DNA of 64,000 nt, taken from Bryobacterales bacterium (GTDB taxonomy: Bacteria > Acidobacteriota > Terriglobia > Bryobacterales > UBA6623). Shown here one piece after another: positions 26,710 through 38,620 of this stretch. How positions within the stretch are numbered: the first letter of the stretch is position 1; the number at the start of each line of letters is the position of its first letter. Both the position numbers and the translations under genes were made by a program. The DNA is taken from the NCBI GenBank assembly GCA_965226385.1, contig OZ245359.1, positions 905,116-969,115 on the forward strand, given 5' to 3'. A model generated the notes under the pieces. That model made no database searches. It was not told the origin of the DNA and saw only the letters and a program-made list of their open reading frames with translations.

Positions 26710-26719
26710 TTATCAAATG
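26710..26719. repeat. Left copy of the 10-bp target-site duplication TTATCAAATG
   Basis: An identical 10-mer directly abuts the outer edge of both inverted repeats. Confidence 0.85.
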
Positions 26720-26767
26720 GGCCTTATATACCAAAGTGCTCAGAAACGGAATCTGGCGGGAATGTTC
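26720..26767. repeat. Left 48-bp terminal inverted repeat of the IS1595-type transposon
   Basis: GGCCTTATATACCAAAGTGCTCAGAAACGGAATCTGGCGGGAATGTTC is the exact reverse complement of 30563-30610. Confidence 0.9.
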
Positions 26768-28093
26768 CGGGCAATCCTACTCGCGGATACCTTCGCGCTT
26801 GAGCTTGGCAATGAACGCGGCTTGGCTAATCGTGCCCTTGGATGAGTTGCAGGCTGAGCACAGCAACTGGAGGTTGTCTAGGTGATCGGTTCCTCCCTTG
26901 GAACGCGGCGTGATGTGGTCCACTGTCAAGTTACGGAACGGGAAGTGGTGATTGCAACCGGCGCATAGGCCCTCCTGCCTGCCGTAGAGGGTGTGGCGGG
27001 GCGTCTTGTACGGCGGTAGTTTGCCAACGTCCGTCCGTCTCGGGATGTCTGTTCTGGCTGTCACCATGTCGGGGCGGTAGAGCGTCCCAAGGAGTCCGTC
27101 CAGTCTCAGCTTGACCAGATCTATTGCCTTAGTGGACAGGTCAATTCCCACCCATTGGCGGTTCAGCCGTTCGGCTGCCACAGGTGCCGTGGCACACCCA
27201 CAGAATGGGTCCAGCACGATATCACCCTCGTTGGATGAGGATTCAATGATTCTCGACAGCAATCCAAGCGGCTTTTGGGTTGGATAGCCTACGCGCTCGG
27301 ATTCATTGTCAAGCCACTTGATATCCTCATCAACGCCCTCAGTGGAATTCCACAGCACGCCTTGCGTTCCCGGCTGGAATGCCCATAAGTCCTGCTAGAG
27401 AACCCCATGCGAACTGCTCAGGTACTGCTTGTACCGAGGCATCTTACCCGCCGTCCTTGGGTGGATGATCAACGAGAGGGCGTCCAACTTGTCAAGTACC
27501 CGCTGCACTGAGTCATTAGCTGTGTCGAACTTGATCAGGGAACGGATCGAGGATGGTATTGCCCAATGACGGCCATGCGGTGTTGGGTCGTATCCCCGCC
27601 ACGGCTCCCCGCTTTCCCCAGCCCTTGTTCCTGATCCGGTCAAGACGTTTGACTGGTACTTGCCGTGACTGTCGGAGTAAGGGAAGTTCTTCTTGACATA
27701 GGTAGACGTGTACGGAGTGCGACCCGGATGGAACGTGAACCTCTTGCCTTTCGAATAGAACAGCAAGGTATCGTGGATCGGTCCATATTGCTTGGTTAGC
27801 TTGTTGTGGGCGTTACTCCTGCGCCATATAATCTCGCTGCGGAAGTTGTCTGGTCCGAACACCGCATCCATGAGTTCCTTGAGGTAGTGGCTGGCCGTTG
27901 GATCGCAAGGCAGGTAGATACTGCCGGTGGGCTTGAGTACTCGCTTCATTTCGAGCAGGCGGATCGCCATCATGACGAGATAGGACTTCATGGACTTCCC
28001 ATGCGCCAGTCCTGTCGCGTCAATCCCGCTCGATAGCGCCGGTTCCCTGTCCGCTAGTGTCCTGACCTTCAAATAGATTGAATTAATTTGCAA

Positions 28094-29170
28094 AGTGTGC
28101 CATACTGCTTCTCGCGGGAGGGAGCACTATGGCACGACCGGTTGCAGTTCTCGATCTGCATCCCGAGGAACAACGGGAGTTGGAACGGCGGGTCCGCGCC
28201 GCGACCACTTCCCGGCGCGACTGCCTGCGCGCGCGGATCGTGCTGCTGCGCGCCGAGGGCGTTAAGCAGCGGGACGTCGCCGAGCGCCTCGGGGTCAGCG
28301 TCGCGTGTGTGAACAAGTGGTCGCAGCGCTTTGACCGCGAGGGCCTTGCGGGCCTGCAGGACATGCCCGGCCGCGGACGGCGGCCCACGATCCCCTTGGA
28401 AACCGTGGAGAAAGTCGTCACCGAAGCGGGGCGGACGCCGCCCGGACGCCAGCGCTGGAGCACCAGCAGGGCCTCAAGCCGCACCGCACCAAGACATTCA
28501 AACTCTCCAGCGACAAACAGTTCGAAAGCAAGTTCTGGGATGTGATCGGCTTGACCCGCCCGAGAAGTCCGTGGTGCTGTGCTGCGACGAGAAGAGCCAA
28601 TGCCAGGCGCTGGAGCGCACCCAGCCCGCCCTGCCGCTTGGTGTCGGACACATTCGCACCCGCACTCACGACTACATTCGGCACGGCACCGTGTGCCTGT
28701 TTGCGGCGATGAGCTACCTGGAAGGCAAGCTGATCTACCGCACCGAGGCGCGGCACACCCATCTGGAGTGGCTGCGATTCCTCAAGCAAATCGACCGGGA
28801 GGTTCCGAACGGTCTCCAGATTCACATCGTCGCGGACAACTATTGCACGCACAAGCACGCGAAGGTGCGGGACTGGCTGGGCAAGCACAAGCGCTTCCAC
28901 ATGCACTTCACGCCCACCTCGAGTTCCTGGCTGAACCTGGTGGAGCGGTTCTTCGCTGACCTGACGGCGGACTGCGTGCGGGACGGCAGCTTCGGGAGCG
29001 TCAAGGAACTGACGGACGCGATCACGGCCTACCTGATGGAGCGCAACGAGAATCCGAAGCCGTACCGCTGGAAGGCCAAGGGCGAGGAGATTCTCGCCAA
29101 GATCCACCGGGCGCGCCAGGCTCTCGAGAGCGAAGGTGGTTAATTAATATTATTTAGCGATCAGCACACT
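28094..29170 (+). mobile_element. IS630-family element relic nested in the methyltransferase gene (approximate ends)
   Basis: Termini AGTGTGC / GCACACT are inverted. The size of about 1.08 kb fits IS630. It splits the MTase reading frame. Confidence 0.6.
28129..29143 (+). pseudogene. IS630-family (DDE_3) transposase with two internal deletions
   Basis: The HTH part MARPVAVLDLHPEEQRELERRVRAATTSRRDCLRARIVLLRAEG runs to ...RWST. The frame is then lost: about 20 codons are missing before GLKPHRTKTFKLSSDKQFESKFWDVIGL. About 7 nt are missing before DPPEKSVVLCCDEKSQCQALERTQP. The rest, ...HFTPTSSSWLNLVERFF..., is intact. Confidence 0.75.
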
Positions 29171-29368
29171 AGGATTCCGATCCAAGCTAGATCGACGTCA
29201 CCCAGAGTCCAAGTGTCCTTGAAGGCAGCGCCTGCCGCCTCTGATCCTATGGGAGCCTCGTAATTGCGATTCGAGTTGAATGGAGGGTCCAAGTAGATCA
29301 GGTCTACGCTCTCGGAATTCATGCCACGGAGGACGTCCAGATTGTCCCCGGTGAACAGCGTGCGGTTC

Positions 29369-29527
29369 TTAACGTTCGGCTCCGCCATGCTCGTTCCGTT
29401 TCTTGCGAGGCAGCCCGTAGGCGAACATGCGCCGGACGGCCTCCTTGACCGGAAGGTTGATTCTCAGGACACGCGTTTCCGGTCGCCCCGGACGGTTCCG
29501 CTTGGTCTTGCGCACCAGCTTGCTCAT
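29369..29527 (-). CDS. Unannotated 52-codon basic ORF between the transposase and the methyltransferase
   Basis: MSKLVRKTKRNRPGRPETRVLRINLPVKEAVRRMFAYGLPRKKRNEHGGAER. Its ATG overlaps the transposase stop (ATGA at 29524-29527). Its 3' end overlaps the MTase ATG (29388) by about 20 nt. It is too short for the ORF track. Confidence 0.35.
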   Translation of the reverse strand: MSKLVRKTKRNRPGRPETRVLRINLPVKEAVRRMFAYGLPRKKRNEHGGAER

Positions 29528-30477
29528 GCAGTCAGCCTCTTGTACGTGAGCACCTTGCCGTCCATGTTACGGACCATATGTCCCCTCTGGTCCATGGTAT
29601 CCATGCTGCGGATTCCGGCGCGTCCGGTGAACTCGTTCAAGTACCGATGCAGGTGCTTACCTGTCATCCAGTGATAGATGCCGTAGTAGCCGCGCTTGAA
29701 CAGGGACCAGAACCCCTCGATGCTGTTGGTGTGGACCGAGCCGCGCACGTACTCGCCCGCTCCGCGGTTCACCGCGTCGTGAGTGTACTCCCACAGCTTC
29801 CCATAGGAACTGGACCCGTCCGTGTACACCGTGGAACCCGGCTCGACCGTATCCTCCACGAATCCTCCCAGAGTCTTGGCATCCGTTGCCGGAACCGGCT
29901 TCGCTGCCACATTGCCGCCACGCTCCTTGGCACCCACAACCGCCGTCTTGCCGACGGTTCCGCGACCGGCCTTGAGTTTCTTCGATTCGTGCTTGTTCCG
30001 CTCCTTGCCTCCGCTGTAAATCTCGTCGATCTCGACGATGCCGCTGAGCGTCGCCTCGCCGTCCCTGAACACCTCGCGGATTCTCTGGAGCATGTGCCAT
30101 GCGGCCTTCTGCGTGATGCCCAGCTCGCGATGCAGCTTCATGCTGGAGATCCCCTTGATGTTGGTCGCCGCCATGTAGAACGCAACAGCCCATGCCTGAT
30201 AGCCGAGCTTGCTGGATTGCATGATCGTTCCCTTGCGGACGCTGAACCGCTTGCGGCAGTCCTTGCAGGTGTACGGCATGGACGGATGGGACGGGCCATG
30301 TCCGTGGTTGCCGGAACCGCAGTCCGGGCAGGTCGGCCCGTTCTTCCAGCGCAGTTCCTCAAACCACCTTTCCGCCGTCGCGTCGTCCGGGAACTCGTGA
30401 AGCAGCTCGATGATCGTGACTCCCTTGCGGTCCGCCCACCCAGGCCCCTTCGTCGTATGGTTGCTGTGTCTCCTCAT
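29524..30477 (-). CDS. IS1595-family transposase, apparently intact
   Basis: N-terminal Zn-finger region WKNGPTCPDCGS...YTCKDCRKRFSVRKGTIMQSSKLGYQAWAVAFY. ISXO2-like DDE part VEIDEIYSGG...STVYTDGSSSY...HTNSIEGFWSLFKRGYYGIYHWMTGKHLHRYLNEF. Start at MRRHSNH (30477) or 30483. Confidence 0.85.
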   Translation of the reverse strand: MRRHSNHTTKGPGWADRKGVTIIELLHEFPDDATAERWFEELRWKNGPTCPDCGSGNHGHGPSHPSMPYTCKDCRKRFSVRKGTIMQSSKLGYQAWAVAFYMAATNIKGISSMKLHRELGITQKAAWHMLQRIREVFRDGEATLSGIVEIDEIYSGGKERNKHESKKLKAGRGTVGKTAVVGAKERGGNVAAKPVPATDAKTLGGFVEDTVEPGSTVYTDGSSSYGKLWEYTHDAVNRGAGEYVRGSVHTNSIEGFWSLFKRGYYGIYHWMTGKHLHRYLNEFTGRAGIRSMDTMDQRGHMVRNMDGKVLTYKRLTA

Positions 30478-30562
30478 GAGCATTATAATACCACAAACTG
30501 CAAGTGGAGTCAAGCGCTAATGCACTGATTCTAAAAGTCTTTATATGCGTTCTGCCTGTACC

Positions 30563-30610
30563 GAACATTCCCGCCAGATTCCGTTTCTGAGCACTTTGGT
30601 ATATAAGGCC
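30563..30610. repeat. Right 48-bp terminal inverted repeat
   Basis: Exact reverse complement of 26720-26767. Confidence 0.9.
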
Positions 30611-30620
30611 TTATCAAATG
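30611..30620. repeat. Right copy of the 10-bp target-site duplication TTATCAAATG
   Basis: Identical to 26710-26719. Confidence 0.85.
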
Positions 30621-37687: not shown

Positions 37688-37696
37688 TAGAACAAA
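37688..37696. repeat. Left 9-bp direct repeat TAGAACAAA flanking IS1595 copy 2
   Basis: The same 9-mer occurs at 38612-38620, immediately outside the other IR. Confidence 0.7.
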
Positions 37697-38611
37697 CCTA
37701 GGTATGCACTTAGCTCTAGCTCGAAGGGTCGCTCCGATTGATAAGTTCGTCATACGTAACAGGTTCGTGTGAGATCAATTGCTCGGCCAAACGGTAGAAG
37801 ATTTTCCCCACATGCCGCGATTTGCGCCAGTTGAACCGAAACGTGAACTCGTCGAGATAACCTTGCAGGTGTTTCGATCCGACGCTTCCGTGATGGGTCC
37901 CCAGTAACCAGCGTTTCAACAGCGAGATGACCAAGTGGACGTGGGGGAATTCCGCTTCCGTCAAGGCCGGATCCGCGTGCGTCAGACTGACCCGATGCAC
38001 GTAGCCAGCCCGCTGCAAGCCGGCATAGCCCTTCCACCCGTCTGTATGCACCGTGCTGCCCGGCTCCACGCAGTCGCGGACAAACTCGCCCAAACTGCTC
38101 GCCGAGGCATCTGCGATGTGGCGCAAGCGAATCCATCCCATCGCGTCACCGTCCAGTTCCACGGCCACCACCACCAGGCTCTTGCGGGCCAGCTGGCGTC
38201 CGCGGACACCAGCCTCTGCCCCGCCTAGGTACGTCTCGTCGATTTCCACTTCTCCCTGCAGGCGTTCTCGGTCGAGCCGGACCATCGCGGCTCGCAACTT
38301 CTGCAGCAGCAGCCAAGCGGTCCGATAGCTGCCGAGGCCCAGGGACCGCTGCAACCCGGCTGCACTCAGGCCGGTCTTCTGGGTGCAGGCCAGCCACGCC
38401 CGCGTGCCTGCGCATTGCGGGCAGACGAAACCCTGCGACCACCGCAAATCGGTCAAGTACTCGCAACAATCCTGCTCAGTGGCGAATCGCGCCGAGAACT
38501 CCAGCAGATTCTTCGGGAAACTAGCTGAGGCTTTCCGGAGGATTGCTCCGATCACACGGCTCTCAATCCGAGGCACAAATCGAGTTTACTAGAGCTAAGT
38601 GCATACCTAAG
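37697..38611 (-). mobile_element. IS1595-family insertion sequence (915 bp) upstream of surE
   Basis: 23-bp IRs, CCTAGGTATGCACTTAGCTCTAG versus the reverse complement of 38589-38611, with 1 mismatch. 9-bp direct repeats. GC-rich against AT-richer flanks. Confidence 0.85.
37716..38576 (-). CDS. IS1595-family transposase, probably carrying an internal deletion after the Zn-finger
   Basis: WSQGFVCPQCAGTRAW is followed directly by LACTQKTGLSAAGLQRSLGLGSYRTAW, so about 40 residues expected between them seem absent. The DDE part EIDETYLGG...STVHTDGWKGY...HLQGYLDEFTFRFN is present. Confidence 0.7.
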   Translation of the reverse strand: MPRIESRVIGAILRKASASFPKNLLEFSARFATEQDCCEYLTDLRWSQGFVCPQCAGTRAWLACTQKTGLSAAGLQRSLGLGSYRTAWLLLQKLRAAMVRLDRERLQGEVEIDETYLGGAEAGVRGRQLARKSLVVVAVELDGDAMGWIRLRHIADASASSLGEFVRDCVEPGSTVHTDGWKGYAGLQRAGYVHRVSLTHADPALTEAEFPHVHLVISLLKRWLLGTHHGSVGSKHLQGYLDEFTFRFNWRKSRHVGKIFYRLAEQLISHEPVTYDELINRSDPSS

Positions 38612-38620
38612 TAGAACAAA
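38612..38620. repeat. Right 9-bp direct repeat TAGAACAAA
   Basis: Matches 37688-37696. Confidence 0.7.

Follow-up and report, generated by a model that had tools for sequence, protein, structure and literature searches.

A 64,000-nt stretch of a Bryobacterales genome (assembly GCA_965226385.1, contig OZ245359.1, positions 905,116 to 969,115; hereafter the window) contains, beside ilvB, a 3.9-kb element bounded by long terminal inverted repeats (IRs). We read this element, at a probability of about 0.85, as a passenger-carrying insertion sequence (IS) of the IS1595 family, known as a tIS, in a Bryobacterales-like acidobacterial genome; by comparison with related contigs, it has been mobile recently, and its cargo is by now dead. 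The native element is ~2.78 kb long and consists of 49-nt IRs ([A/G]GGCCTTATATACC...), a promoter-like site, a transposase gene, a coupled 52-codon open reading frame (ORF) and one cargo gene, here a methyltransferase fused to an HNH nuclease domain. An earlier annotation made from the letters of the same DNA (hereafter the original prediction) had described the 3.9 kb as one unit. The segment did insert as a single IS1595 transposon, but the native unit measures ~2.8 kb as opposed to the 3.9 kb found here, and a later insertion of an IS630-family element accounts for 1115 bp of the difference. Only three points of the element are unusual: IRs as long as 49 nt, a small ORF that is conserved, and a methylase-HNH partner that recurs.

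Ends and backbone genes of the element

An inverted-repeat search returned two 48-nt arms (26720-26767 and 30563-30610) that are 100% complementary (48/48). These arms are the sole two copies of the 48-mer in the 64-kb window, where shuffled sequences give an expectation of 0, and searching the window with the same 48-mer revealed no internal IR copy within the element. Directly outside each arm lies the 10-mer TTATCAAATG. In addition, the element is richer in GC than its flanks (0.55-0.63 vs 0.45-0.50). The perfect repeats, the shared 10-mer, the lack of an internal IR copy and the difference in GC were all noted in the original prediction, and all were recovered here. The same account placed the whole interior on the minus strand, tightly packed, which is contradicted by an IS630-family element lying on the plus strand (Table 1).

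For comparison, we used 80 loci with 50-88% identical transposases, taken from species-representative genomes; the termini could be defined in 40 of them. The ends of the window element read [A/G]GGCCTTATAT, those of the relatives GGG[AG]NTTATAT. The length of its IRs (49 nt) is unusual, since those of the 40 relatives have a median of 28 nt and never exceed 36 nt.

Profile searches assign the transposase to the IS1595 family, as originally proposed. It matches DDE_Tnp_IS1595 (PF12762, 2e-39) and Zn_ribbon_IS1595 (PF12760, 1.2e-08) in Pfam, and transpos_IS1595 (NF033547, 1.6e-54) in NCBIfam, with 185 bits for a cut-off of 75. Twenty relatives all share residues D153, D222, E256 and K263. Protein P0001 is 100% identical, and relatives number thousands. 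Both the type of transposase and the bounding terminal IRs are those of the family, and the same ends are found at other loci. By these ends, the closest subgroup may be the ISNwi1 type, which in ISfinder has the consensus GGnnaTTAT together with a DDEK signature.

The promoter-like site stops 2 nt short of the transposase ATG at 30483. Given this position, a transcript with a very short leader, or with none, might cover the transposase, the small ORF and the cargo. The TGA of the transposase and the ATG of the 52-codon ORF overlap as ATGA, and the ORF in turn overlaps the methyltransferase ATG (29388) by 20 nt, both as described before. The small ORF is probably a real gene, because its core, NRPGRPETRVLxIxLxVxxAVRRMFAYGLP, is kept through synonymous changes in the window and in two sister elements (L001 and L006, see below). 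A ribbon-helix-helix reading of its stretch RVLRINLPVKEAVRRMF was considered and dropped, the ORF being too short for the second helix.

Empty sites, a second copy and the order of events

Related contigs were found through the neighbouring SDR protein, and the ilvB-SDR spacer was compared among them (n = 10). The element is present in three of the ten. The other seven have an empty site, ...GGCATTATCAAATG[C/T]CGTAAATAAGC..., with one copy of the target, exactly as had been predicted. Further copies of the element had also been anticipated, and a second one was found via its truncated methyltransferase product (P0165, 292 aa) and the 52-aa ORF. It lies on the same 4.77-Mb contig, at an unrelated locus (B12-binding and pantoate genes), and has the same ends. 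This copy is without the IS630-family element, measures 2775 bp between its GGCC ends and has the same in-frame TAG in its cargo gene. The passengers thus lie inside the IRs and move with them as a unit, as in a tIS: empty and occupied sites differ by the whole unit, and the second copy has the same cargo.

The original prediction had itself allowed that the 48-mers might turn out to be the ends of two independent IS copies, as in a composite transposon, or part of an unrelated repeat family. The probability of this is negligible. A single IS1595 transposase lies between the only two IR arms, no third 48-mer occurs between them or elsewhere in the window, and the IS630-family element is internal and unrelated. 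Moreover, the empty sites point to one clean insertion, and the same ends bracket the same genes at the second locus.

Comparison of these copies gives the following order of events. The cargo gene gained its TAG nonsense codon before the element transposed, and two loci of one genome hence share the TAG. An IS630-family element later entered a CTAG in the cargo of the ilvB-locus copy, duplicating TA, and afterwards lost 8 and 9 nt. For the transposition itself, the transposase would bind the IRs and insert the whole unit, its staggered cut duplicating 8 bp of the target (TATCAAAT here). The cargo appears dispensable for transposition, because a copy moved after the cargo was dead, as the shared TAG indicates.

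A copy on contig L113 was considered as a third site, at which an IS630-bearing composite would have moved whole. It was rejected, since the copy is truncated inside the transposase and the contig has 2x coverage. This truncated IS630-bearing copy (L113:4184-6084) is joined to plasmid-like genes (RepA_C, PhdYeFM/PIN) and may represent either a plasmid copy that was rearranged or a chimeric assembly. The IR core CCTTATATRCCAAAGTGCWCAGRAACGGAA had no exact match in the JGI metagenome contigs or in the IMG/VR viral contigs, and these collections gave no extra sites and no sign of phage carriage.

Length of the target-site duplication

The 10-mer outside both arms was first read as a 10-bp target-site duplication (TSD). 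The repeat is present as described; it probably consists of an 8-bp TSD with, on either side, one terminal base of the element. On the available copies, we hold it likely that the TSD is 8 bp (TATCAAAT) and that the element occupies 26719-30611, with a 49-nt IR showing one terminal mismatch. The 40 relatives have termini GGG[A/G]NTTATAT and perfect 8-bp duplications. Aligned to them, the window termini read GGGNNTTATAT, one base longer than GGCC; in this alignment, the ends reach one base beyond the 48-nt arms, the cargo-side end being GGGCCTTATAT and the transposase-side end AGGCCTTATAT. The 8-bp duplications are perfect in 4/4 complete copies (ATTTGATA, TTATTTTA, TTTCAAAA and CTTTATTC, in transposase orientation). 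In the IS1595 family, the TSD is 8 bp, with 7-9 bp in IS1016 (PMC12561309, PMC5704250).

It is improbable, by comparison, that the lineage makes a true 10-bp duplication, through a specific change of the transposase stagger, with ends GGCC...GGCC. Two sites do have a perfect 10-bp repeat, independently of each other: CATTTGATAA in the window, read in transposase orientation, and CTTTCAAAAG in L006. The other two sites match at 9/10 positions. Both mismatches, however, fall at an outermost position of the 10-mer. With an 8-bp TSD, 6 of the 8 flanking positions at the four sites together match the element termini, against ~36% per position in the relatives (binomial P ~0.03). This excess, like the two perfect repeats, tells against the 8-bp reading. 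The lineage also has unusually long IRs, and other properties of it could differ as well. On the other hand, the base outside GGCC behaves as part of the element. On the transposase side, it is G at five unrelated sister flanks (L001, L003, L006, L024 and L025) and A at both window-lineage sites (seven left flanks in all), and on the cargo side it is always C. We take it as an element base because its identity follows the lineage and not the target. The empty site, which holds exactly one 10-mer, fits both the 8-bp and the 10-bp model, the direct repeat at the window site being 10 bp. With an 8-bp TSD, the repeat would read as 10 bp here by coincidence, the target being bordered by the same bases as the terminal A...C of the element. 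The same resemblance to a 10-bp repeat is found in 6 of the 40 clear 8-bp relatives (15%), which makes the window site a warning for automated TSD calling.

The cargo gene and its decay

The methyltransferase-HNH cargo had been described as one gene of a cargo operon. In the window it is a pseudogene in three pieces, interrupted by an in-frame TAG and by the IS630-family insertion (Table 1), and no functional cargo gene is present. Its stop (26777-26779) does adjoin the left IR, as first noted, at a distance of 9 nt rather than 10. In profile searches, the C-terminal piece scores 2.1e-19 with N6_N4_Mtase, 1.4e-14 with HNH_5 and 2.6e-14 with HNH.

Once restored, the cargo protein has ~496 aa. 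Its methyltransferase is of the N6/N4 beta class, with DPPF first and DPFCGCAT late, and its C-terminus is a zinc-finger HNH of the IscB/Cas9-like type (NCBIfam). Methyltransferase motifs and nuclease domain hence stand in one chain in the reconstructed protein. The nearest solved (PDB) and NCBIfam relatives of the methylase are of the CcrM, MboIIA and Mod types, and PADLOC matches cover the methylase part only. More than 100 full-length homologues of ~490-500 aa have both domains, and the HNH catalytic and zinc motifs are invariant in them, as are the methylase motifs.

Table 1 Features of the element in the window
Feature	Coordinates	Strand	Remarks
Left TSD copy	26711..26718		TATCAAAT, in the 8-bp reading; the 10-bp reading is 26710-26719
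Cargo-side terminal IR	26719..26767	+	49 nt, GGGCCTTATATACCAAAGTGC..., the 48-nt arm plus a terminal G; terminal G/C constant in all copies
Methyltransferase-HNH, C-terminal piece	26777..27394	-	N6_N4_Mtase motif I region (DPFCGCAT) and HNH (CxxC...DH...N...CxxC)
In-frame TAG nonsense codon	27395..27397	-	Tyr in homologues, ...GVL[Y]QD...
Methyltransferase, middle piece	27398..28056	-	Target-recognition region and RVLKPTGSIY motif; N6_N4_Mtase 3.7e-14; resumes at ...LADREP past the IS630-family IS
Nested IS630-family IS	28057..29169	+	1113 bp; ~30-nt imperfect IRs; TA duplication 28055-56 / 29170-71, CTAG target
Methyltransferase, N-terminal piece	29170..29388	-	Motif IV, DPPF
52-codon backbone ORF	29369..29527	-	Very basic; conserved in window, L001 and L006
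IS1595-family transposase	29524..30483	-	319 aa, intact, Zn ribbon and DDE; longer start 30513 also listed
Promoter-like site	30485..30513	-	TTGACT-17-TATTAT with extended TG; 10/12 consensus positions, by consensus match alone
Transposase-side terminal IR	30563..30611	-	49 nt; terminal A where the other end has G
Right TSD copy	30612..30619		TATCAAAT

The nested element has the features of the IS630 family, namely HTH_23, HTH_29 and DDE_3 domains in profile searches, a TA duplication and terminal IRs (GTGTCCTGACCTTCAAATAG... and GTGTGCTGATCGCTAAATAA..., with ~21/30 positions matching). Its GC is 0.62-0.72. Removing it joins AWIGI to LADREP, and in the alignment the homologues P0121, P0122 and P0165 read AWIGI-[L/I]A[D/E][R/K] without a break. 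Its transposase is not intact: relative to a copy on contig L112, it has 8-nt and 9-nt deletions, and it is broken into plus-strand ORFs at 28129-28545 (138 aa) and 28331-29143 (270 aa). The nested copy is probably non-autonomous, because the transposase frame is broken. The L112 copy (L112:2067-3196), which has the 8 and 9 extra nt, is from a strain of the same metagenome sample. Its 343-aa ORF was considered as an active IS630 transposase and rejected, since two compensating indels enclose ~33 codons that are read in the wrong frame. In one further strain (L108/L023), the nested IS630 has an additional 54-nt deletion. Judging from these copies, the nested element is decaying differently among co-existing strains.

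Sister elements and the cargo slot

The closest relatives of the transposase share the IRs at ~90-98% identity. In a Bryobacterales metagenome-assembled genome (MAG), a 1779-bp deletion derivative (L001/2/4) retains its TSD and, of the methyltransferase, has remnants only. L006 is a 4283-bp element with an 87% identical transposase, in which the small ORF is followed, in the methylase-HNH slot, by a gene for a 944-aa MmeI-like protein. Nucleotide homology between the window element and L006 extends exactly to the small-ORF 3' end, breaks off there and restarts ~30 nt inside the other IR. The backbone therefore consists of IR, transposase, small ORF, a cargo slot and IR. Two other sister copies, L003 and L025, have ends without matching duplications. 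The left flank of L003 differs and holds an IS1595 transposase fragment (L003:5480-5779). These junctions suggest recombination between copies in the Bryobacterales MAG.

The 40 relatives with definable termini have a median length of 3.0 kb (range 1.7-8 kb), and 38 of them, exceeding 1.7 kb, are taken to carry passengers. Methylases are the commonest families (N6_N4 4, C5 2, N6_Mtase 2, D12 1) in a set of 71 cargo ORFs that 39 relatives supplied. Other cargo includes HNH (3), restriction genes of the NotI and NgoFVII types, nested ISs, a reverse transcriptase and a SocA-type antitoxin. Homologues of the methylase(-HNH) are present at ~17/80 transposase loci, several of them as decayed genes, and their orientation is tandem, divergent or convergent. 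Seen from the cargo, an IS1595 transposase adjoins four of the six closest methylase-HNH genes and is absent nearby in the other two. Of the features that the original prediction had singled out as odd, the long IR holds, whereas neither the 10-bp TSD, for which the 40 relatives give 8, nor the nuclease-methylase passenger, found in ~17/80 relatives, is exceptional. In the JGI data, most methylase relatives are without the HNH part and on short contigs; an IS1595 transposase is found at 6/80, a figure that is no measure of association. In the plasmid collection, the transposase relatives are all below 47% identity and annotated "IS1595 family transposase".

Some homologues of the cargo have other neighbours. 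At L195:2739-6232, an FGE-sulfatase gene is interrupted by a segment holding P0132 (a close homologue of the methylase-HNH) with a 58-aa ORF and a DUF2513 gene, and no transposase is nearby; this form may be a non-autonomous or differently mobilised version of the same cargo. An FGE-sulfatase gene again adjoins methylase-HNH at L194. At four loci, the start of a small ORF (58-90 aa) overlaps the methylase-HNH stop (L012:7488-7742, L194:5611-5883, L195:5482-5658 and L196:5488-5673). The window element has no such trailing ORF, and its IR starts 9 nt past the stop.

The MAGs of the relatives belong to Acidobacteriota, Chloroflexota, Rhodothermales, Alphaproteobacteria, Binatia and other groups. 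IlvB beside the window element is ~80% identical to Bryobacterales MAG proteins. Samples ERZ25069191, ERZ25072854 and ERZ25068966 contain both strains of this lineage and sister elements, which is compatible with exchange between co-resident bacteria.

Role of the cargo

From its domains, the cargo is most likely a single-chain restriction-modification (R-M) or addiction enzyme, in which one recognition domain would serve both methylation and cleavage. A one-gene R-M system would suit a small transposon, because R and M cannot become separated. The MmeI-like cargo of L006 follows the same one-gene logic.

It is rather unlikely that the cargo is instead an orphan (solitary) methyltransferase, outside R-M, whose HNH would be an accessory of the nicking or homing type. 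In favour of this, solitary enzymes are frequent among beta-class methylases, CcrM for instance, and the CcrM, MboIIA and Mod types give the best matches in PDB and NCBIfam. The PADLOC matches cover the methylase part alone, and the element lacks a separate restriction gene. In all full-length homologues, however, the HNH keeps its catalytic and zinc motifs, and the same slot of a sister element is filled by an MmeI-like single-chain R-M architecture. NotI- and NgoFVII-type restriction genes in related elements argue in the same direction, and the fact that the gene has decayed repeatedly would be in keeping with a nuclease that is toxic or costly.

Nucleases aid spread or retention for some other IS families. 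One could thus imagine the methylase-HNH as a functional partner of the transposon, the HNH cutting donor or target DNA and so aiding spread or retention. An HNH of the IscB/Cas9-like type, an IS1595 transposase beside 4/6 of the closest homologues and a homologue at ~17/80 transposase relatives, in three different orientations, would all accord with such a role. Yet two close homologues have no transposase nearby, and most clade members have other cargo. In addition, one sister has an MmeI-like enzyme, the deletion derivative still has its TSD, and the same nonsense codon stands at two loci, so that the element moved after the gene was dead. We regard a partnership of this kind as very improbable.

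If the cargo is a single-chain R-M enzyme, a wider picture can be drawn, although the odds are somewhat against it. The IS1595 tIS clade, found in sponge-type and marine MAGs of many phyla, might be a dedicated shuttle for such enzymes, its modules (methylase-HNH, MmeI-like) being swapped immediately 3' of the small ORF, always at one fixed junction. The methylase::HNH fusion might be an uncharacterised type of one-polypeptide R-M or addiction enzyme, spread mainly by hitch-hiking.

Several points weigh against our account of the element and its cargo. A literature search returned 0 papers on the methylase-HNH architecture and 0 characterised members, and the role given to the fusion is a prediction from sequence. 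The small ORF has 0 matches in Pfam, PADLOC and NCBIfam, and its family is not recognisable. Mobility is read from comparing copies with empty sites, and excision products were not observed. Finally, the ISNwi1-like assignment goes by ISfinder consensus ends and is tentative.

Relation to known elements

The tIS are a recognised class of passenger-carrying ISs, restricted to the IS1595 and IS66 families (bioRxiv 10.1101/2021.05.26.445724). Two of them, tISCpe8 and MTnSag1, end in IRs of 25 bp and are flanked by direct repeats of 8 bp (PMC5704250). For MTnSag1, copy-out/paste-in movement has been proposed. Like these two, the window element has one Zn-ribbon/DDE IS1595 transposase and passengers inside its own IRs; like IS1595 tIS in general, it has GGnnnTTAT-type ends and, most likely, an 8-bp duplication of an AT-rich target. 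In contrast to tISCpe8 and MTnSag1, its IRs measure 49 nt rather than 25 nt (PMC5704250), and it carries a methylase-HNH fusion in place of a resistance gene. It also has an extra conserved ORF of 52 codons, coupled to the transposase, and in this copy the cargo is dead and an IS630 is nested.

In 2010, Furuta, Abe and Kobayashi described R-M units that resemble transposons (PMC2853133). These have long IRs, perfect or imperfect, and their insertion duplicated 8 bp, as recognised by comparison with empty sites. These authors cite the IS1595 family paper for IS-associated R-M and M genes, and one of their units has a transposase-like COG3677 gene (PMC2853133). The window element resembles these units in having an R-M-type gene between long IRs and a duplication, most likely of 8 bp, recognised by empty-site comparison. 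Unlike them, it has an intact transposase identifiable as IS1595, it is multicopy and polymorphic among strains, and its R-M candidate is a single fused polypeptide that has been inactivated.

The cargo shares with type IIG/IIL MmeI-like enzymes the presence of nuclease and methyltransferase in one polypeptide, presumably using one recognition module. It differs from MmeI in its parts: MmeI has an N-terminal PD-(D/E)XK nuclease and a gamma-class methylase, whereas the cargo has a beta-class N6_N4 methylase with a C-terminal HNH. The nested element agrees with the IS630 family in its helix-turn-helix and DDE_3 domains, its TA duplication in CTAG, its size (~1.1 kb) and its imperfect IRs, and departs from autonomous members in its broken transposase frame.

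With an occupied and an empty site, a second copy, sister elements and ordered decay events, the window offers a fully documented case of a passenger IS1595 element that entered a genome and later underwent erosion, through a nonsense mutation and the insertion of another IS. Should the fusion be a one-gene R-M system, small transposons may contribute more than is appreciated to the movement of restriction specificities between symbionts that live together.

A second IS1595-family insertion in the window

The window contains another, simple IS1595-family IS of 916 bp (37696-38611), which adjoins surE and has 24-nt IRs. Its transposase (286 aa) lies on the minus strand at 37716-38576. The element is flanked by a clean 8-bp TSD, TAGAACAA, at 37688-37695 and 38612-38619, and it is absent from the strains that are likewise without the main element.

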